A stretch of 25,144 nt of DNA, taken from an uncultured Eubacteriales bacterium. Its GTDB lineage: Bacteria > Bacillota > Clostridia > Lachnospirales > Bianqueaceae. The stretch spans positions 1-25,144 of the forward strand of contig ONYR01000005.1 in NCBI GenBank assembly GCA_900322165.1. The letters run 5' to 3'. Positions 921-11,739 of the stretch are shown here, piece by piece; within the stretch, counting starts at the first letter, position 1, and the number at the start of each line of letters is the position of its first letter. The notes beneath the pieces are model-generated. The model saw nothing but the letters and a program-made list of their open reading frames with translations. It was not told the origin of the DNA and made no database searches. Both the position numbers and the translations under genes were made by a program.

Positions 921-2120
921 TTATTGGGCTGATCCAAGACGGTCTTTCAGCGGTTTGTCCTTGCGTTCCCTCGCCATCTCGCAAAGCTGGAGCTTCGTAA
1001 ATCCGTAGACGGTCGTCTTTCTCAGGTCCGCGTCCAAAGCACTCTGAAGCGCTGCGAGCACTTTCCCCCTTGCCTCTTCCTTCTCCATATCGACAAAATC
1101 GATCAGGATGATCCCGGATAGGTCTCTCAGGCGGATCTGGCGCACGATCTCAGGGATAGCCGCTATATTGGCGGCTTCGATGGCCGTTTGTTTCTCTTCC
1201 CGGCTTCCCGAAAGCTTTCCCGTATTAACATCGATCGCGCAAAGCGCTTCGGTCTGTTCGATGAAGACGTAACCTCCGCCGTCGATCCAGACCTTCTTTT
1301 CAAGCGCTTCAGCCAGCTGGCTCGGGAGGCGGTAGATCTCCTGCAGATGCTGAGAAGCCTTGGCATCCCCGCTCTCATAAACACGGACTTTCTCAAGCCG
1401 TCCCGGATCGTGTACCTCAAGCTCGCCTTTCATTTCATCGATCGCAAGATCCCCGGCAAGAAGGATCTCCTCGGTTCGATGAAGCGGGACCGACTGCATA
1501 AACGAGAGCCAGACCGATCCGTTTTCGTGCAGCACCGTTCCCGTCTTGGCATATTTTGCCTTTTTCAAGATCTGATCGTAGACCCTGACAAGGCGAGATG
1601 CCTCTGTTTGCAGTTTAAAGGCCTCTATTCCTTCGCTTTCGGTGCGGATGACATAACCGGCCGTCTCACGCTTTTCAAAGCCTTCTGCGGCCGTTTTGAG
1701 CCGTTTTCGCTCTGCGGGGTCGGTGATCTTTTTGGAAACGCCGGTCGGCAGTTTTCCGTGAGACAGAACGACAAGATCGCCTCGCAGGCTGAAGCAGTCT
1801 GTCACCGCACATCCCTTAGATCCGACCGCGGCCTTTTTCACCTCGACGACCAGCTCCTGCCCGTTTTTGTAGGAAGACAGCGCGTCCTCCTCGAGCGGCA
1901 GGAAGGCCGGCTTTTCATCCCCGATCTCAACGAAAACGCCCGACAGGGAACGATTGACTTCACGGATCTGTCCCAGACGGATCTGTCCGGGAAGCGGCCG
2001 TTTCGCCTCATCGATCAGACGGAAATCAACCAGCTTCTCATTCTCGACAAGTGCACCGGCCAGATGATCCAGATAGCGAAAGACAAGGACTTTCAAATGC
2101 GGCACCGTTCGATCACTCAT
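921..2120 (-). CDS. rng: Ribonuclease E/G family (Rne/Rng) protein
   Basis: S1-like N-terminus (GVFVEIGDEKPAFLP), AIDVNTG and GIILIDFVDM with catalytic Asp residues, LCEMARER. Overlaps the upstream gene's stop. Confidence 0.92.
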   Translation of the reverse strand: MSDRTVPHLKVLVFRYLDHLAGALVENEKLVDFRLIDEAKRPLPGQIRLGQIREVNRSLSGVFVEIGDEKPAFLPLEEDALSSYKNGQELVVEVKKAAVGSKGCAVTDCFSLRGDLVVLSHGKLPTGVSKKITDPAERKRLKTAAEGFEKRETAGYVIRTESEGIEAFKLQTEASRLVRVYDQILKKAKYAKTGTVLHENGSVWLSFMQSVPLHRTEEILLAGDLAIDEMKGELEVHDPGRLEKVRVYESGDAKASQHLQEIYRLPSQLAEALEKKVWIDGGGYVFIEQTEALCAIDVNTGKLSGSREEKQTAIEAANIAAIPEIVRQIRLRDLSGIILIDFVDMEKEEARGKVLAALQSALDADLRKTTVYGFTKLQLCEMARERKDKPLKDRLGSAQ

Positions 2121-2814
2121 GGCATTCCCACAGGCGGTAGTCGGAATAATCTACCAGACCTTCCTCACTGCGGCCGAACATCCTTGTCCGGCAGATGGTT
2201 TCCTCATGCTGTCTTTCTTCGCAGCCGGCTTCCTGATACATCTTGGTAAGCAGCAGCTCCGGCTTCAGATTGGTCTCGCTGCCTCCCTCGCACTGCAGCA
2301 AAAGCGTATGATCGTCTTCCCAGACAACCTGGTGGATCAGAGGCTTCACGTCCACGTCGATGAGCTGTTTGCGGCCCTTGACCTTGCCGAGCTTTTTCAG
2401 CATGATCGCATCCTGGGAAAGCAGCTGATCCAGGATCGCCTTCATCGGCAGGTCTTCCGGGAACACGATGCGGTATTCATTTACCTTTACGAGCGACATG
2501 ATCGCGCTTTGCGTATCAGGGATCGTGCGTACGGCCTTCACGTGCAGGCCGTTAGGCAGTTCACGGGAAAGGTTTTCAAAGATCTCCCGATCCGACATTT
2601 CGTTTTCAATGCGGATCTCCATGATCTCGTTTTCACCGGACGCGCCGAGCGCCAGCGGACTGGCAAACGACATGTGCGGATGCGGATTAAAGCCCTGTGA
2701 GTAGCTGAGCTTGATGCCGGCACGCGTCATCGCGCGCTGCATGGTCCGCATCATATCGAGATGGCCGACAAAGCGAAGGCGGCCGTCTTTGGAAAAAATG
2801 ATCTGTTTTTTCAT
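2113..2814 (-). CDS. Radical SAM-linked protein (TIGR03936/DUF2344 type)
   Basis: FSKDGRLRFVGHLD and YSQGFNPHPHMSFASPLALG signature; directly downstream of the radical SAM gene; AAGGAGG RBS. Confidence 0.9.
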   Translation of the reverse strand: MKKQIIFSKDGRLRFVGHLDMMRTMQRAMTRAGIKLSYSQGFNPHPHMSFASPLALGASGENEIMEIRIENEMSDREIFENLSRELPNGLHVKAVRTIPDTQSAIMSLVKVNEYRIVFPEDLPMKAILDQLLSQDAIMLKKLGKVKGRKQLIDVDVKPLIHQVVWEDDHTLLLQCEGGSETNLKPELLLTKMYQEAGCEERQHEETICRTRMFGRSEEGLVDYSDYRLWECHE

Positions 2815-4751: not shown

Positions 4752-4784
4752 AAAAAATCAGCGGCCTGCATCCCTGAAGGCCGC
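4752..4784 (-). terminator. Probable terminator after mgsA
   Basis: Minus strand GCGGCCT...AGGCCGC stem followed by TGATTTTTT, 10 nt past the mgsA stop. Confidence 0.55.
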
Positions 4785-4793
4785 CCCTTTCGA

Positions 4794-5195
4794 TCAATCT
4801 TTACTGTGAAACATTTCCCGCCAGTCAAGATCCCCTCGGTCCAGTCCGAGGATCAGCATTTCGGCGGTCGCTAAGTTTGTGGCAACCGGAATATTATGCG
4901 CATCGCAGTGCCTGAGAATATTGACCAGGCTCGGCTCGTTCGTTGCCGGATTATCCGGATCTCTCAGATAGATCACCATGTCAATATGATTGCTGTCGAT
5001 CTGCGCACAGAGCTGCTGCTCGCCAAAGGAACCCGTCAGCATTTTCTGAATCGGAAGGTTGGTCACCTCTTCGATTCGTCTGCCGGTGGTGCCGGTAGCC
5101 AGAAGTGTATGTTTTTTAAGAATATTCGAATAAGCAACACAGAAATTCTGCATCAGTGTTTTTTTATTGTCATGAGCGATCAATCCGATGATCAT
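4794..5195 (-). CDS. mgsA: Methylglyoxal synthase family protein with a degenerate active site
   Basis: IAHDNKK, ATGTTG, YLRDP and NIPVATNLATAE match MgsA; the usual SGPxGGD and HEPD motifs read TGSFGE and NEPS. Confidence 0.88.
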   Translation of the reverse strand: MIIGLIAHDNKKTLMQNFCVAYSNILKKHTLLATGTTGRRIEEVTNLPIQKMLTGSFGEQQLCAQIDSNHIDMVIYLRDPDNPATNEPSLVNILRHCDAHNIPVATNLATAEMLILGLDRGDLDWREMFHSKD

Positions 5196-5199
5196 CCGT

Positions 5200-6342
5200 T
5201 TACCTCCTTTTCCTATACCGTCGGTTTTCGCCTTCCATACGAAGCACGAGACCGATCGCAGCTATATTTGCTGTAAGGGAGCTGAGACCGTAGCTGACAA
5301 ACGGAAGCGGAAGCCCCGTGTTCGGCAGTACGGCAATCGTAACACCGATGTGAACCAACGCCTGAAAGGCGATCATCACGGCAGAGCCAACACAAATCAC
5401 ACGTCCGAAGACATTTTCTGTGTGGAATCCGAACCGCAGCATGCGGATCGACAAGAGAAAATACCACACAATGACAAGCGCTCCGCCAACAAAACCCAGT
5501 TCCTCTCCGATGACGCCGAAAATGAAATCGGTCGTCGCAATCGGAACCATTCCCGAATTGTGAAACAGTCCCTTACCGATCAGTCCGCCAGCACCGATGG
5601 CTGTTCTGGACTGAATCGACTGGTAAGCCGCTGTCAGGGCATAGTCCTCAGGATGAAGCCATGCAAGGATACGCTCCGCCTGATAAGGCGAAAGGATCCG
5701 CGGCGCCTCGCTGAGAGCATCGTGGAGAATCAGGTAAAGCCCGCCGGCAAACAGCAAAACCGCTGCCAGAATATAGGCCCAATGTACCTTTGCCGCGAAA
5801 AAGCAGGCAAAGACGACAGCCAGAATGACCAGCGACGTTGAGAGATCCGGTTCCCTGTAAACCAGATACAGCGGAAGCAGCGAAACGAGCGCCGCTCCGA
5901 GGATCACCAACGGGTGATACAGCTTTCCGCTGAACCGCTCAAAATACCACGCAAGGCACAGAATCAGCGCAATTTTGGCAAACTCCGAGGGTTGAATCGT
6001 GATATCCGTAAACAGCGGCAGCCACCGCCGGACATTATCCCCCGCTTCCGCTCCTTCTCCGAAGCGAAGCACCAGCAGAAGAAGCACGAGAACGGCAAGG
6101 TAAAACGGAATCGCAAGCGCTTTGAAAAAGCGGTACGGACAGATCCAGATGAGGTAAACGATCCCGCATCCGAGAACGAATCCTATGAGCTGTCTTACCA
6201 TCAGTCGGCTCAGTGAAATATGACGGCTGTCGTAAACCCACCCGCCGGCACTGCCGATCATGATGATGCCAAACAACACCAGAGCCGTCACCATGATCGA
6301 TACAGGGATGTCAAACAATCGACGGCTTTTCTGCGTATTCAT
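5200..6342 (-). CDS. rodA: SEDS family peptidoglycan glycosyltransferase RodA
   Basis: Polytopic membrane protein with RRW, IQPSEFAK, EPDLST, TDFIFGVIGEELG and GLPLPFVSYG; downstream of pbp2/mreBCD. Confidence 0.92.
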   Translation of the reverse strand: MNTQKSRRLFDIPVSIMVTALVLFGIIMIGSAGGWVYDSRHISLSRLMVRQLIGFVLGCGIVYLIWICPYRFFKALAIPFYLAVLVLLLLVLRFGEGAEAGDNVRRWLPLFTDITIQPSEFAKIALILCLAWYFERFSGKLYHPLVILGAALVSLLPLYLVYREPDLSTSLVILAVVFACFFAAKVHWAYILAAVLLFAGGLYLILHDALSEAPRILSPYQAERILAWLHPEDYALTAAYQSIQSRTAIGAGGLIGKGLFHNSGMVPIATTDFIFGVIGEELGFVGGALVIVWYFLLSIRMLRFGFHTENVFGRVICVGSAVMIAFQALVHIGVTIAVLPNTGLPLPFVSYGLSSLTANIAAIGLVLRMEGENRRYRKRR

Positions 6343-6418
6343 GGGGTCCTTCCGTTAGTTCCGTATTCGTGTGAAAATTTCGACAATGTCAGCCGCAAAA
6401 ATACGAATAATTATAGTT

Positions 6419-6447
6419 AAAATATCATCAAAGTGCCTATCTGTCAA
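6419..6447 (-). promoter_or_regulatory. Sigma-A-like promoter for rodA-mgsA, with -35 inside the pbp2 3' end
   Basis: Minus strand TTGACA (6447-6442), 17 bp, then TATTTT preceded by TGn; a second TATAAT at 6415-6410. Confidence 0.5.
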
Positions 6448-9223
6448 GAGAAATCCCATCATAGTTTAGTAGAATATTGATAAAAACAGGAATTGCGTTT
6501 CTCGATCCTCCACCAAACGGGATCATGACAGAGATCGTCACCTCCGGATTCTGATCGCTGGCATATCCGGTAAAGAGCGAATGATCCGGACGGCTCTCCA
6601 TTTCCTGTGCGGTACCGGTCTTTCCGCCGCAGTGGATCCCCATCGCTTCAAGGACCGCAAACTCTTCTCCATGGTCATCCGTGACCACTAAACGCATGCC
6701 GTCCCGAACGATCCGAAGGTTCGTTTCACTGATGACGTGCGTGGCTTTGGCTACAGGCTCAGCCCGGTACAGCACCGCGCCATCCGGCGAGTGGATCTCA
6801 TTGACTAAAAACAGATCATAGACGTTTCCGCCGTTGACAAGCGTCATCGTATACCGGTTCAGATTGGCGCACGAATACGCGCCGTCACCCTGACCGATCG
6901 CGGAGCGAACCGCGTCGAGCTCCGAAGGATGAGGCTCGGTCTCACTCAGCTCAATGCCCGTCTTCCCGGCAAGACCGAGAAGCTCCGCATAATGCCTGAG
7001 CTTCGCAAGTCCAACCGCATCGTTAAAGTCTCCTTTTTCATCCGGCTCAGACAGCCAGTAACCCACCTGATAGAAGAAATAGTTGCACGAATAATCGATC
7101 GCCTGGACAACGTTGATCTCGCCATGGCTGACACTGCTCCAGCAGACCGGCTGGCTTTCGGTATTGACATGCGGGAAGCGGTAATCATCGTAGACCGTCG
7201 TATCCTTCGTAATGACGCCAAGGTCAAGCGCGCACGCTGAGGTCAGCAGCTTGAACGTGGATCCGATCGCACGCATCTCGGAAAGGGCGCGGAAACTCAG
7301 CGGACCGGAATTATCCTGAATGATCTCCTCATAGTATTCATAGCTGTTCATAAACCGGTTCGGATCATAGGAGGGATAGCTTACCATTGCAAGCACTTCT
7401 CCGCTCATCGGATCCGTGATCACCACGGAACCGCTGCAGGGATCCAGATTGACGTCAGCCGGCGTGATCTCGTCCGCCATGATCTTCATCTGCAGCAGCT
7501 CAACGGTCGTGATCTCATCGTTCACGAGCATTTCCCTGCTCCCATCCTCATCGGAGAGCAGCCCCTGTTCGTACAAAAGCTCAAAGAAAAACGGCTCGGT
7601 GACCAGTCCCGTCTGAAGCAGGTAACGGTACAGGTACTCATGGAACTCCGGATCCTCACCGAGATTCTGAAGCTCCAGATCGAGAATATAGGTGATTGCC
7701 TGAGAGTCTTTCATCAGATGATTGCCGACCGCCAACATGCCGTTCGGTGCCGTATAGATCTCGTACGCCTCCAGATTCAGCACACCGTTTTCAAGGCAGT
7801 AGACAAAGAAATCGTACGGGCTGATCTTGCCCGCGAGATAATCCGGATAGAACGCTTCATCATCCTGATAGGCATAGGAAAGATATCCGCGGTCGCGCAT
7901 CGCTTCGATCAGCAGATCATAGAGATTCTTTTCCTCTTCGGACAATTCAGAAACAGGCTGTTTTGTCTCCAGAATCGACGTGCGAAGATCCAGCAGCGCG
8001 CTCTCTGAAGCATCATCATAGATCTCCCGGAAAATATCCATGTAATAGCCGGACCCGTTATCCAGGACCGAATCCGGGATAAAATGGTTCGCCAAAAGCG
8101 CACAAAGGATATCCTGCACACTGTAGGATTCCCCGTGCTCTCCGCTTTTTCCGGTAATTTTTTTAACCAAGAGGGTTTTGATCTGCTGATAAAGGGATTC
8201 ATAGGCCGCTTCCTGAAGATCCCGATCGATCGTCAGAAAGATACTGTTGCCTTCTTCCGCCGGCACCATGGTGACCTGATCGACGATCCGATCCCCGAGC
8301 GTATCGATCTCCAGACGAACCGTTCCCTGCTTACCGCGCAGGGTGGATTCATATTCAGCCTCGATCCCGGTTTTCCCGACGATCGCGTCCTCATCATACG
8401 ACCTTCCGGCACGCTCGGCCTCAGCCATCTCTTCTTCATCGATGCGCCCGACGTAGCCGATGATATGCGCGAAAAGCTCGCCCTCCGGATACACTCTGGT
8501 GTAAACAAGCTCCACCGAGAATCCGCTGAACTCCGCCGCACGTTCGACCATCTCCGCTTCCGTCTTTTCGGAAACGCTCCTCCCGATCCGAATCGGAGCC
8601 GACGGATCGAAGCGTCCTGAGAAGATCGCATAGCGAAGCTCTGTCAGCTCCCGATAGGTTTCAGCCGGAAGCTTTGGATCGATGCCGAACTGTTCCTCCG
8701 CCAGAATGCGCATCGCTTCCTGTGCACTTGTATTCTTTTGTTCATCCGTAAGACGATCCCGGCTGGTATTGTATACCTCAGCGAGAAAGTTGCCGTGCGC
8801 GACTTCGTTTTCACTTGTAAACGCCGGCTTATAATAACAGGTCCCATTTTCCGTAAATCCGATCGGGAAAACGACCGACGCGCCGATCTCGTCTCCGTTT
8901 TTCTCCGCCATATCCATCAGATCCAGCAAGGCCCGGTTCAGATCACGGTTTCCGGCCGAAGGCGTATAGATCAGGATCCGGCTTTCTTCATTGATGGCGA
9001 GCGGACGTCCGTACCGGTCATAGACCGCGCCTCGCTCTCCTTCGATCGAAACGGTTTCATAGCGGTTCTCCGCCTGGATCTCCACATAGTGTTCATAGTC
9101 CCGGATCTGCACCTGATACAGGCTCACAAGCAGCACGCCAAAAGCCGCTGCGATCACAGCGGTCAGCACCACGATGCGGTTGGAGACGATCTCCCACAGG
9201 CGAATCAGAATCTCTTTGATCAT
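6437..9223 (-). CDS. mrdA: Class B penicillin-binding protein 2 (elongation transpeptidase) with a large acidic insertion
   Basis: N-terminal TM anchor, ERGAVYDRYG, RVYPEG, GKTGIEAEYE; catalytic motifs STFK, SCN and KTG intact; ATGA overlap with mreD. Confidence 0.93.
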   Translation of the reverse strand: MIKEILIRLWEIVSNRIVVLTAVIAAAFGVLLVSLYQVQIRDYEHYVEIQAENRYETVSIEGERGAVYDRYGRPLAINEESRILIYTPSAGNRDLNRALLDLMDMAEKNGDEIGASVVFPIGFTENGTCYYKPAFTSENEVAHGNFLAEVYNTSRDRLTDEQKNTSAQEAMRILAEEQFGIDPKLPAETYRELTELRYAIFSGRFDPSAPIRIGRSVSEKTEAEMVERAAEFSGFSVELVYTRVYPEGELFAHIIGYVGRIDEEEMAEAERAGRSYDEDAIVGKTGIEAEYESTLRGKQGTVRLEIDTLGDRIVDQVTMVPAEEGNSIFLTIDRDLQEAAYESLYQQIKTLLVKKITGKSGEHGESYSVQDILCALLANHFIPDSVLDNGSGYYMDIFREIYDDASESALLDLRTSILETKQPVSELSEEEKNLYDLLIEAMRDRGYLSYAYQDDEAFYPDYLAGKISPYDFFVYCLENGVLNLEAYEIYTAPNGMLAVGNHLMKDSQAITYILDLELQNLGEDPEFHEYLYRYLLQTGLVTEPFFFELLYEQGLLSDEDGSREMLVNDEITTVELLQMKIMADEITPADVNLDPCSGSVVITDPMSGEVLAMVSYPSYDPNRFMNSYEYYEEIIQDNSGPLSFRALSEMRAIGSTFKLLTSACALDLGVITKDTTVYDDYRFPHVNTESQPVCWSSVSHGEINVVQAIDYSCNYFFYQVGYWLSEPDEKGDFNDAVGLAKLRHYAELLGLAGKTGIELSETEPHPSELDAVRSAIGQGDGAYSCANLNRYTMTLVNGGNVYDLFLVNEIHSPDGAVLYRAEPVAKATHVISETNLRIVRDGMRLVVTDDHGEEFAVLEAMGIHCGGKTGTAQEMESRPDHSLFTGYASDQNPEVTISVMIPFGGGSRNAIPVFINILLNYDGISLDR

Positions 9224-9759
9224 GATCTGATCCTCCTTGACATGCGCCGCTTCTGCGCATTCACCTCATCGACATGATCCGTAAACTCATTCAGCTTGAT
9301 CAAAAGAGGCAGCAGCAATACGCCAAGCAGCAAGGTATAGATCACCTCGGGAAGGATCAGATGGAACAGGTAATAAGCAAAACGTGTGTCTCCCTTGAGA
9401 AAACGCAGAAAGATAAACTGAACCAGCCCTGCGGCAAAGGAAGACGCGGCTGTAAACGAAACCGGAAGCAGCAGCAAGCTCCGGCTCAGATTTCTTGAAA
9501 GATAACCGACCGAAAAACCGATCAGCATGTAGATCAGGGCATAAAAACCAAGTACACGGAAAAACAGCAGGTCTTCCAACAACCCAAGCACAAATCCGAT
9601 CAGGCTGCCCCGTCTCTCCCCCTGCACCATCGCAGCTGAGACCGTCAGCAGCAAAAGAAGATCCGGCAAAATGCCGCCGATCGCAATGCCCCTCAGGCTT
9701 GAGGACTGGAGAATCAACACGATAAACCCGATCAATGCATTCAAAACAAGGGAGATCAT
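9220..9759 (-). CDS. mreD: Rod shape-determining protein MreD
   Basis: Hydrophobic; LPDLLLL and GFVLGLLEDL motifs; lies between mreC and pbp2 with overlapping start/stop codons. Confidence 0.9.
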   Translation of the reverse strand: MISLVLNALIGFIVLILQSSSLRGIAIGGILPDLLLLLTVSAAMVQGERRGSLIGFVLGLLEDLLFFRVLGFYALIYMLIGFSVGYLSRNLSRSLLLLPVSFTAASSFAAGLVQFIFLRFLKGDTRFAYYLFHLILPEVIYTLLLGVLLLPLLIKLNEFTDHVDEVNAQKRRMSRRIRS

Positions 9760-10667
9760 GGCTGAACCTCCCCGTTTTCATTCTCACTCAGATTTCGCAC
9801 TTCCGTAATGATAAGCACCATGTCGGTCTGTTCCAGATCGACACTCGGTTTAATAATGGCAACACTTTCATATCCGGTTCCGACCGGAATGATCTCAGTA
9901 ACGATACCGATCGAAAGCCCCGGAGGATAGATGTCTCCCAGCGATGAGGTAACGATCTCATCCCCCACAGTAATATCGACCTCTCCGGTCACAAACTTGA
10001 TCATGCAGAGGCTGTCATCGATCTCACCAAGCTCATTGGAATGGTAGCCGAACGCACCCTCCACCACGACAAGATCGCCGCCGGGACGGTTGATCTGGCC
10101 GTAGATCACACTGCCCTGATCCACGATCGAGGTAACGATCGCATACTGTCCGAACACCTCGCTGACGTGTCCCGCGAGTCCGCCTGTCGTGATGACCGGC
10201 ATGTATATCTCGATCCCGTCGGCGCTGCCTTTATCCAGGATAAAGGTATCATACCAGTTATTCGGGGACAGACCGATGATCTGAGCGCCGGTTTTCGGAT
10301 AATCCCGGTAATAGGTATCCAGTGCGTAAAGCTCCTCGAGCTCCTCCGCGCGTCTCGCTTCGGCCAACAGGGCGCGGTTCTCCTCTTCGAGGGCTTCGAC
10401 CTGTTCCCTGAGTCTGGCGTTTTCCTCCATCACCGACTGCATCGTGCCCCAGCCTTCGTTATGGTCATGGATCCAAACCTGCACACTTTTCATCCCTTGC
10501 TCGATCGGGTCCGAAACCAAGTGCAGGGCTTCTCTTAAAAAGTCAAGCCTCAGCCCCAGCATGCCGGTGATGATGAGTAAAAGGACGCAGACAGCCAGGC
10601 CAAGCGGCAGCCGCCACTTCGCCCTCTCTTCCCTGATCGCCCTTTTTTCGGCATCTTCCCGTTTCAC
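9756..10667 (-). CDS. mreC: Rod shape-determining protein MreC
   Basis: N-terminal TM helix, coiled coil (ENARLREQVEALEEEN), ILDKGSADGI and VTSSLGDIYPPGL. Confidence 0.93.
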   Translation of the reverse strand: MKREDAEKRAIREERAKWRLPLGLAVCVLLLIITGMLGLRLDFLREALHLVSDPIEQGMKSVQVWIHDHNEGWGTMQSVMEENARLREQVEALEEENRALLAEARRAEELEELYALDTYYRDYPKTGAQIIGLSPNNWYDTFILDKGSADGIEIYMPVITTGGLAGHVSEVFGQYAIVTSIVDQGSVIYGQINRPGGDLVVVEGAFGYHSNELGEIDDSLCMIKFVTGEVDITVGDEIVTSSLGDIYPPGLSIGIVTEIIPVGTGYESVAIIKPSVDLEQTDMVLIITEVRNLSENENGEVQP

Positions 10668-10685: not shown

Positions 10686-11711
10686 TTAATGATACAGCGA
10701 CGCTGTCTCCAAAACTCCCTTGTATGCCTGGATATTATCCAGTACGATCCCGCAGCCGTTCACGACGCAGTGAAGCGGATTCTCCGCAATCACCGTCTTG
10801 ACACCGCAGACCTTCTCGATCATGGTATCCATGCCCTTCAAAAGCGCACCGCCGCCGGTCAGATAGATCCCGTTGTCATAGACATCGGAAGCGATCTCCG
10901 GAGGCAGCTTCTCAAGCACATCCGTAATCGCATTGATGATCTGCATGATCGTCGGATAGATCGCCTCGGCAACGTGGAAATTCGTGAGCTCCATGGAAAG
11001 CGGAAGGCCCGTCATCACGTCGCGCCCCTTAATGATCAGTTTATCCTCATAGGTATTGTCATCCACGTATGCGGTTCCGATCGTGGTCTTAATATGCTCG
11101 GCCGAAATATCGCCGATATTCATGTTATTGATCTTCTTCAGGTAGACCATGATCGCTTCATCGATGGCATCACCGCCGACACGAAGCGATTTGGACTCAA
11201 CGATCCCGCCAAGCGAGATCACGGCGACTTCCGTCGTTCCGCCGCCGATATCCACCACCATGCTGCCGACCGGATCCATCACCGGCAGGCCTGCCCCGAT
11301 CGCAGCCGCCATCGGCTCCTCCATCAGGTAGGTTCCGCGCTCATTGACGCCGGACTGCAGGGCCACTTCGATCAAGGCACGCTTTTCAACGTCCGTGATC
11401 CCGTAAGGCGCACAGATCACCAGATCCGGCCGCATGAAAAAGTTCGGTTTGGCTACCTTGCGGATATAGTACTGAAGCATCGCTTTGGTCGACGTATAGT
11501 CCGCGATGACGCCTTCCTTGATCGGGCGCTCCGCGCGGATATGATCCGGCGTTCTTCCCAGCATCTGCTTGGCTTCCTCGCCGACCGCCACAACCTCCTC
11601 GGTCTCGGTATCGATCGCAACGACCGAAGGCTCCTCCACAACGATACCGGCATCCTTCATGTAAACCAGAATATTCGCCGTGCCAAGGTCAATTCCCAGT
11701 GCCTTTTTCAT
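10686..11711 (-). CDS. mreB: Actin-like rod shape-determining protein MreB
   Basis: GIDLGTAN, EPSVVA, EEPMAAAIGAG, DIGGGTTE, LTGGGALL. ATG 11711 chosen because GGAGG lies 7 nt upstream. Confidence 0.96.
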   Translation of the reverse strand: MKKALGIDLGTANILVYMKDAGIVVEEPSVVAIDTETEEVVAVGEEAKQMLGRTPDHIRAERPIKEGVIADYTSTKAMLQYYIRKVAKPNFFMRPDLVICAPYGITDVEKRALIEVALQSGVNERGTYLMEEPMAAAIGAGLPVMDPVGSMVVDIGGGTTEVAVISLGGIVESKSLRVGGDAIDEAIMVYLKKINNMNIGDISAEHIKTTIGTAYVDDNTYEDKLIIKGRDVMTGLPLSMELTNFHVAEAIYPTIMQIINAITDVLEKLPPEIASDVYDNGIYLTGGGALLKGMDTMIEKVCGVKTVIAENPLHCVVNGCGIVLDNIQAYKGVLETASLYH

Positions 11712-11739
11712 GCTCACGCCTCCTCTTATTCAGGCGGCC

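Follow-up and report, generated by a model that had tools for sequence, protein, structure and literature searches.

The protein considered here finds its closest described relatives among the methylglyoxal synthases (MGS or MgsA; EC 4.2.3.3), which act as homohexamers and convert DHAP to methylglyoxal and phosphate. Work by Saadat and Harrison from 1998 is said to have found that mutations of Asp71 and Asp101 (E. coli numbering) have a kinetic effect of 10^3- to 10^4-fold. The MGS-like fold is not confined to MgsA; it is also that of the allosteric domain of carbamoyl phosphate synthetase (CarB), which binds IMP, UMP or ornithine, and, as Foldseek matches to 7mgq and 1zcz indicate, of the IMP cyclohydrolase domain of PurH. 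For MgsA itself, Asp71 is assigned as the catalytic base and Lys23, Ser65 and Thr45-Gly49 as phosphate binders, with His98 assisting, although His98 is suggested to be non-critical for catalysis itself (PMC7843640).

The MGS fold can serve purely as an effector binder, since the carbamoyl phosphate synthetase domain binds phosphorylated effectors without catalysis (as with the IMP ligand in 1ce8). That domain shares only 14-20% identity with the protein described here and is part of a large enzyme, whereas the latter is a stand-alone protein of 133 residues, and thus not a CarB allosteric domain. A search of the literature found no papers on MGS pseudoenzymes, nor any that considers mgsA in connection with rodA or with the min or mre genes.

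Here we describe an MGS homologue encoded in a 25,144-nucleotide stretch of DNA (the window) from an uncultured Eubacteriales bacterium of the rumen. The protein derives from the short Firmicute type of MGS, is folded and is maintained by selection, and the best reading of its residues, towards which we lean, is that of a catalytically crippled protein that would bind a phosphorylated ligand.

The MGS-like protein and its gene neighbourhood

The window protein, encoded by an intact reading frame (Table 1), matches Pfam PF02142 (37.6 bits) and, at 123.6 bits, clears the 84-bit cut-off of NCBIfam NF003559; at 124.1 bits it stays below the 146.9 bits demanded by the stricter equivalog model TIGR00160. 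Its best solved relative by HMMER is the B. subtilis enzyme, 6f2c (E 1e-32), followed by the Thermus structures 2x8w, 2xw6 and 1wo8. The AF2 model has a mean pLDDT of 93; within its folded part the lowest value (81) is that of residues 81-90, which carry the NEPS loop, and the C-terminal tail is lower still. Foldseek superposes the model on Thermus MGS 2xw6 with a TM score of 0.87 and an rmsd of 0.9 Å; over the solved MgsA enzymes (6f2c, 2xw6/1wo8 and E. coli 1b93) the values are 0.81-0.87 and 0.9-1.5 Å, with 39-49% identity over the structural alignment. The next-best matches, to the carbamoyl phosphate synthetase allosteric domain, have E values of ~1e-4 to 1e-3 and TM scores of 0.6-0.68. 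Since a confident model superposes on both the Thermus and the B. subtilis enzymes (TM 0.84-0.87, rmsd 0.9-1.4 Å), the MGS fold is predicted to be preserved, and the window protein shares its length and N-terminal register with the short Firmicute MgsA.

Table 1. Features on and around the MGS-like gene, in positions of the window.
Feature	Position	Strand	Remarks
RNase E/G (RNase G)	921-2120		after the DUF2344 gene
DUF2344 protein	2113-2814	(-)	
B12-binding radical SAM protein, TIGR03960	2828-4771	(-)	probable ATG at 4771, 22 nt after the mgsA-like stop
MGS-like CDS, 133 aa	4794-5195	(-)	of the usually rodA-linked clade; C-terminal RGDLDWR; without Asp71
C-terminal motif R120-G-D-L-D-W-R126	4818-4838	(-)	marks rodA/min-linked MGS homologues
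N86-E-P-S89	4929-4940	(-)	replaces H98-E/D-P-D101; alignments to solved MGS and family alignment
Active-site loop T54-G-S-F-G-E59-Q-Q	5013-5036	(-)	one residue shorter than SGPxGGDQQ
Phosphate-binding loop A33-T-G-T-T-G38	5082-5099	(-)	retained; E. coli Thr45-Gly49
A7-H-D-N-K-K12	5160-5177	(-)	retained; E. coli His19, Asp20, Lys23
rodA (FtsW/RodA/SpoVE family)	5200-6342	(-)	directly upstream of the MGS-like gene; profile matches
RBS, AGGAGG	5203-5208	(-)	last two sense codons of rodA; 7 nt before the ATG
Two overlapping promoter-like sites	6410-6447	(-)	consensus scan only; 94-nt gap between PBP gene and rodA
Class B PBP (PBP2-like; dimerisation and transpeptidase domains)	6437-9223	(-)	profile match
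mreD	9220-9759	(-)	
mreC	9756-10667	(-)	
mreB	10686-11717	(-)	

Although the fold and the family-level match are those of an MGS, Asp71, His98 and Asp101 are all replaced. HMMER alignments to MGS structures place a single gap, corresponding to a deleted Gly, in the change from SGPLGGDQQ to TGSF-GEQQ, with Glu59 at the position of Asp71, and in the change from PHEPD to TNEPS they place Asn86 at His98 and Ser89 at Asp101; the codons concerned read GAG (5019-5021, Glu59), AAC (4938-4940, Asn86) and AGC (4929-4931, Ser89). These alignments and codons bear out the two motif changes that the earlier note had described (SGPxGGDQQ to TGSFGEQQ, HEPD to NEPS), and the AHDxKK and ATGTTG motifs that it took to be intact are likewise present, as AHDNKK (residues 7-12) and ATGTTG (33-38). 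The window protein further differs from MgsA in having Thr for Ser65 and Ser for Pro67, with Gly66 retained. The residues assigned to phosphate binding (Lys23, Thr45-Gly49 and Ser65-Gly66), together with His19 and Asp20, are thus all represented, with Thr in place of Ser65; the His19/Asp20/Lys23 and TGTTG phosphate site is common to the window protein and to MgsA, including the C. difficile enzyme (PMC7843640).

The genes of the neighbourhood lie on one strand in the order radC, mreB, mreC, mreD, class B PBP gene, 94-nt gap, rodA, MGS-like gene, TIGR03960 gene, DUF2344 gene and RNase G gene; the window contains no min genes, and no terminator-like site was found between rodA and the MGS-like gene. 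The rodA stop codon, TAA (5200-5202), is followed by a 4-nt spacer and then by the ATG of the MGS-like gene at 5195. The RBS was said in the earlier note to overlap the rodA stop; it does lie within the last rodA codons, but AGGAGG abuts the TAA and does not overlap it. Translational coupling of the MGS-like gene to rodA is plausible, because the final codons of rodA serve as the RBS, with the TAA and 4 nt between it and the ATG. The window protein is probably translated together with RodA from the mreBCD-PBP2-rodA operon. The better of the two promoter-like sites, TTGACA-17-TATTTT with an upstream TG, suggests that rodA and the MGS-like gene may also be transcribed apart from mreBCD-PBP2. An HPr-family protein is encoded in the genome of the window.

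Substitution of catalytic residues in the family and beyond

In the assembly from which the window comes (75% complete) the MGS-like ORF is the sole MGS homologue. Its GTDB family comprises 33 genomes in 8 genera, and exactly one MGS homologue was found in 29 genomes, with an intact frame in every case (29/29). All eight genera deviate from MgsA at one or more catalytic positions in the family alignment. The loop TGSF-GEQQ is found in the window's genus, together with [N/T]EP[S/N], and in its sister genus, together with HEPN; in these two genera the GSFGEQQLC loop, including Glu59, is invariant. One genus combines GGEQQ with HEPD and another, represented by a single genome, combines GGEQQ with NEQS, while in the other four GG[A/I/L]QQ, GGLEQ, GGLCQ, GGVRQ, GGDRQ or GGEKQ is accompanied by a degenerate His98-Asp101 stretch and, in some, by AHN, ASD or ATDTTG. 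The motifs LMQNFC[IV]AY, TGRxIEEVTNL, NIPxATN and RGDLDWR are conserved throughout the family.

The position of the gene directly downstream of rodA is shared by 26 of the 29 family loci. In three loci of a single genus (L025-L027) there is no rodA within 1.5 kb upstream, and the radical SAM gene still follows; the MGS-like copies at these loci have Ser at His19 and STDTTG. The TIGR03960 gene is found downstream, at varying distance, in 28 of the 29 loci, the remaining locus ending earlier; in the window the DUF2344 and RNase G genes come next in this conserved module.

Purifying selection on the MGS-like gene is strong, and its product is more conserved than RodA. Pairwise dN/dS values (Nei-Gojobori) are 0.055-0.089 for the pairs with unsaturated dS, most within-genus pairs being saturated, such that the values are rough; the GY maximum-likelihood codon model gives an omega of ~0.01 on a saturated tree, which means only that omega lies far below 1. 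Within the genus the MGS-like proteins are 75-82% identical, compared with 55-61% for RodA from the same genome pairs. A metagenome scan revealed one identical relative and one that is 79% identical, and the relative P0002 is 89% identical to the window protein.

The replacement of Asp71 extends well beyond the family. Among the 80 species genomes nearest to the query (Lachnospiraceae by NCBI naming), which were chosen by similarity to it, Asp does not occur at position 71; Glu was found in 66, Gln in 7, Ala in 3, Val in 3, Thr in 1 and Leu in 1, and rodA is directly upstream in 79/80 genomes. The statement in the earlier note that the Asp-to-Glu change is common in Lachnospiraceae is thus confirmed (Glu in 66/80 genomes). 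Because of this choice, the order was also sampled evenly, with 151 genomes, of which 134 have an MGS match and 48 have two. The scores are bimodal, with 44 matches at 197-216 bits and, apart from two inspected canonical copies of a B. subtilis-like kind, every other match at or below 174 bits. The 30 inspected of the 44 high scorers are E. coli-like (CGTGTTA, PHDPD and a long C terminus), all with Asp-His-Asp and none next to rodA, and the two B. subtilis-like copies likewise do not adjoin rodA; all 32 inspected second copies are thus Asp-His-Asp, and 0/32 lie next to rodA. Such a second, high-scoring copy is present in 46 of the 151 genomes (~30%).

The rodA-linked copies differ. In the 38 that were inspected, the highest-scoring of the matches at or below 174 bits, position 71 is Glu in 25, Ala in 7, Gln in 4, Ser in 1, Val in 1 and Asp in none, and rodA is directly upstream of 38 of 40 order-level copies. 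Virtually all rodA-linked copies sampled in the order thus lack the catalytic Asp, a far wider replacement than the earlier note had supposed. About 30% of the order's genomes have a canonical enzyme besides the rodA-linked protein; the rest, including those of the window's family, have the non-canonical protein only. The NF003559 cut-off of 84 bits admits every non-canonical protein that we saw (92-174 bits), and all are consequently named methylglyoxal synthase.

The window protein belongs to this informally defined rodA/min-linked clade, a large, old and conserved lineage for which no published name was found, by its RGDLDWR motif, by the position of its gene immediately after rodA and by a residue other than Asp at position 71. 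When 130 distinct clade sequences from the order, most of them rodA-linked, were pooled, Lys23, Thr45, Thr48, Gly66 and Gln73 proved invariant (130/130) and Thr47 (128), Gly49 (127), His19 (126) and Asp91 (127) nearly so. By contrast with this conservation, position 71 holds Asp in 2 sequences, Glu in 91 and a non-acidic residue in 37, and 94 sequences retain His98, the same number as retain Asp101; in the loop, Ser65 is replaced by Ala in 112 and Pro67 by His in 101. These residue counts show a clade that keeps what is, by homology, the phosphoryl-binding site, while the catalytic base, Asp71, is replaced, with Glu as the usual substitute and Gln, Ala, Val, Ile or Leu as recurrent ones; the window's genus has gone further, at His98 and Asp101.

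Outside the order, a class-level sample contains nine copies from other Clostridia families that have the full Asp-His-Asp triad together with RGDLDWR and an upstream rodA (9/9). Their close relatives are the homologues of Mahella (M. australiensis), Caldicoprobacter and Xylanivirga, which, with their canonical catalytic state as read from the residues, occupy the same slot after rodA and share RGDLDWR and conserved cysteines with the window protein. The bacteria that carry them are thermophiles of the Mahella and Caldicoprobacter type. The Mahella-type homologues keep SGPLGGDQQ and PHEPD, which are replaced in the window's clade, and the latter, unlike them, has conserved helices of its own (KKxLMQN and GRLIEEVTNL). 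The rodA linkage and the C-terminal RGDLDWR, being present in copies with full Asp-His-Asp, are ancestral and older than the loss of catalytic residues. The coupling to rodA, to which the earlier note had pointed, is not special to this variant; it is equally present with complete triads and so by itself is no sign of a new role.

Ten genomes from four other Clostridia families have two copies, one canonical and located elsewhere, the other non-canonical with RGD[LF][DA]WR; the upstream ORFs of five of these non-canonical copies place three right after minD-minE and two after a MinD-like ATPase. Non-canonical copies of two-copy genomes (L143, L144 and L150-L154) have a one-residue loop deletion, as GxLGE[EQ]Q or GSLG[AS]QQ, which resembles the FGEQQ of the window protein; those among them with inspected upstream ORFs follow minD-minE. 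In a maximum-likelihood tree, which has few columns and many unresolved forks, a branch inside the RGDLDWR kind (SH-aLRT 93) has every sequence that lacks the full triad on the same side, and the window protein groups with its own genus inside this non-canonical clan. The non-canonical state is the derived one, since every other kind of MGS has Asp-His-Asp.

Function of the window protein and competing explanations

The most economical reading of these residues is a non-catalytic, ligand-binding role, because the catalytic residues are substituted while the gene is under selection and the phosphate site is retained. The window protein has probably lost the ability to turn DHAP into methylglyoxal at any useful rate, and it is, on balance, likely that it instead binds phosphate or a phosphorylated metabolite. 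Binding without conversion would fit with the manner in which position 71 toggles within an invariant loop, even in genomes without a second copy, and with the many genomes that keep a canonical paralogue. The pseudo-enzyme reading of the earlier note is consistent with our results insofar as they confirm the substitutions and show an intact gene under selection and a retained phosphate site; its weaker side is that Glu59 is invariant in the window's genus, such that residual or altered catalysis is possible. It may be, though we consider it unlikely, that the protein is still a working methylglyoxal synthase, in which Glu59 acts as the base, the deletion compensates for its longer side chain, and His98 and Asp101 either are not needed or have substitutes in other groups. 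Shortening of the loop by one residue could shift the position of the longer Glu side chain, and the invariance of Glu59 and its loop in the window's genus and the sister genus is what a continued importance of the carboxylate would predict; moreover, most of the clade sequences from the order have Glu (91/130), no second MGS homologue occurs in the window's family, and His98 is reported to be non-critical for catalysis itself (PMC7843640). A non-acidic residue at position 71 is commoner where a canonical paralogue is present (12/21 compared with 12/46 where it is not, as raw counts, of which phylogenetic correction leaves only 3 independent pairs on supported branches, too few to give the comparison power), which hints that the Glu forms may retain activity. 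These points have to be set against the change of three catalytic positions at once, the strong impairment of Asp101 mutants, the close family relatives that have Ala, Ile, Leu or Val at position 71 and no second copy yet are equally conserved, the separate canonical enzyme kept by ~30% of the order's genomes, and the Asp-His-Asp of every solved or characterised MGS that we saw, engineered mutants excepted. A decaying relic without function, to which the loss of three catalytic residues might otherwise point, is extremely improbable; a decaying pseudogene was rejected given an omega far below 1, intact frames in 29/29 loci and conservation above that of RodA, and new clade-specific invariant motifs have arisen.

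Neofunctionalisation, whereby the remodelled loop (Ser65 to Ala or Thr, Pro67 to His or Ser, Asp71 to Glu) and the retained His19, Asp20 and Asp91 would catalyse another reaction on another phosphorylated substrate, is very unlikely in our estimation. The loop changes are coordinated and conserved in the clade (Ala65 in 112/130, His67 in 101/130 and Gly66 in 130/130), the three polar residues are kept, and the MGS-like fold does occur in another enzyme, as the PurH domain; but position 71 toggles freely between acidic, amide and aliphatic residues while the rest of the loop is invariant, as a catalytic residue would not usually do. At position 67 the window's genus carries Ser where the clade mostly has His, and the neighbouring genes suggest no candidate substrate. 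The proposal in the earlier note of a DHAP or phosphate sensor, through which glycolytic state would be physically linked to elongation by RodA, is speculative and quite unlikely, though the retained phosphate site, the likely co-translation from an RBS inside the last rodA codons, the HPr-family protein in the genome and the persistent linkage of the clade to rodA or minD-minE, even with a canonical copy elsewhere, all accord with it. The linkage is equal for full-triad copies and hence predates the loss, and three loci of one family genus lack an upstream rodA. The gene order is inherited from canonical ancestors and, as evidence of a link to elongation, carries little weight by itself; its persistence with rodA or minDE despite a canonical copy elsewhere is the better argument for a tie to envelope growth. 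We regard regulatory contact of the window protein with the elongation or division machinery as possible but unlikely. It would also be unlikely that non-catalytic MGS-fold sensors, co-translated with RodA or MinE, tune elongation and division to glycolytic state across the order and probably more widely in Clostridia; the ligand of such sensors might be, for example, DHAP, and methylglyoxal would come only from the canonical paralogue that about a third of the genomes encode separately.

Implications for methylglyoxal metabolism and cell-wall growth

The order-level census, the pattern of canonical paralogues and the ancestral rodA-linked canonical forms are new here. The genes annotated as "mgsA" in this order may not make methylglyoxal, and the window protein, scoring above the NF003559 cut-off, will be named methylglyoxal synthase by annotation pipelines. 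Where mgsA is present, metabolic reconstructions of gut and rumen bacteria infer methylglyoxal production. Glyoxalase or detoxification genes would tell little in this regard, as Clostridia, to our knowledge, lack a glutathione system. If the rodA-linked copies are not synthases, such inferences would fail for about two-thirds of the sampled Lachnospirales genomes, including those of the window's family.

Enolase (TIGR01060) was found neither in the window's assembly, at 75% completeness, nor in 17 of the 33 family genomes, i.e. half of the family is also without a detected enolase. It was found in 0/11 genomes of four family genera, some of which are 95-97% complete, and in 2/8 genomes of the window's own genus; the genera without enolase include those with the most degenerate MGS-like proteins. 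The methylglyoxal shunt has been invoked as a bypass in enolase-less butyrivibrios (PMC7523725; reviewed in PMC12291648). As a bypass for the enolase-less genera of this family the shunt (PMC7523725) looks doubtful, because they include the genera whose MGS-like proteins are most degenerate.

The clade provides a clean and abundant case of an apparent bacterial pseudoenzyme in which the ligand site is kept and the gene is tied to those for cell shape and division. It opens the idea of a metabolic input to clostridial cell-wall growth to direct testing.
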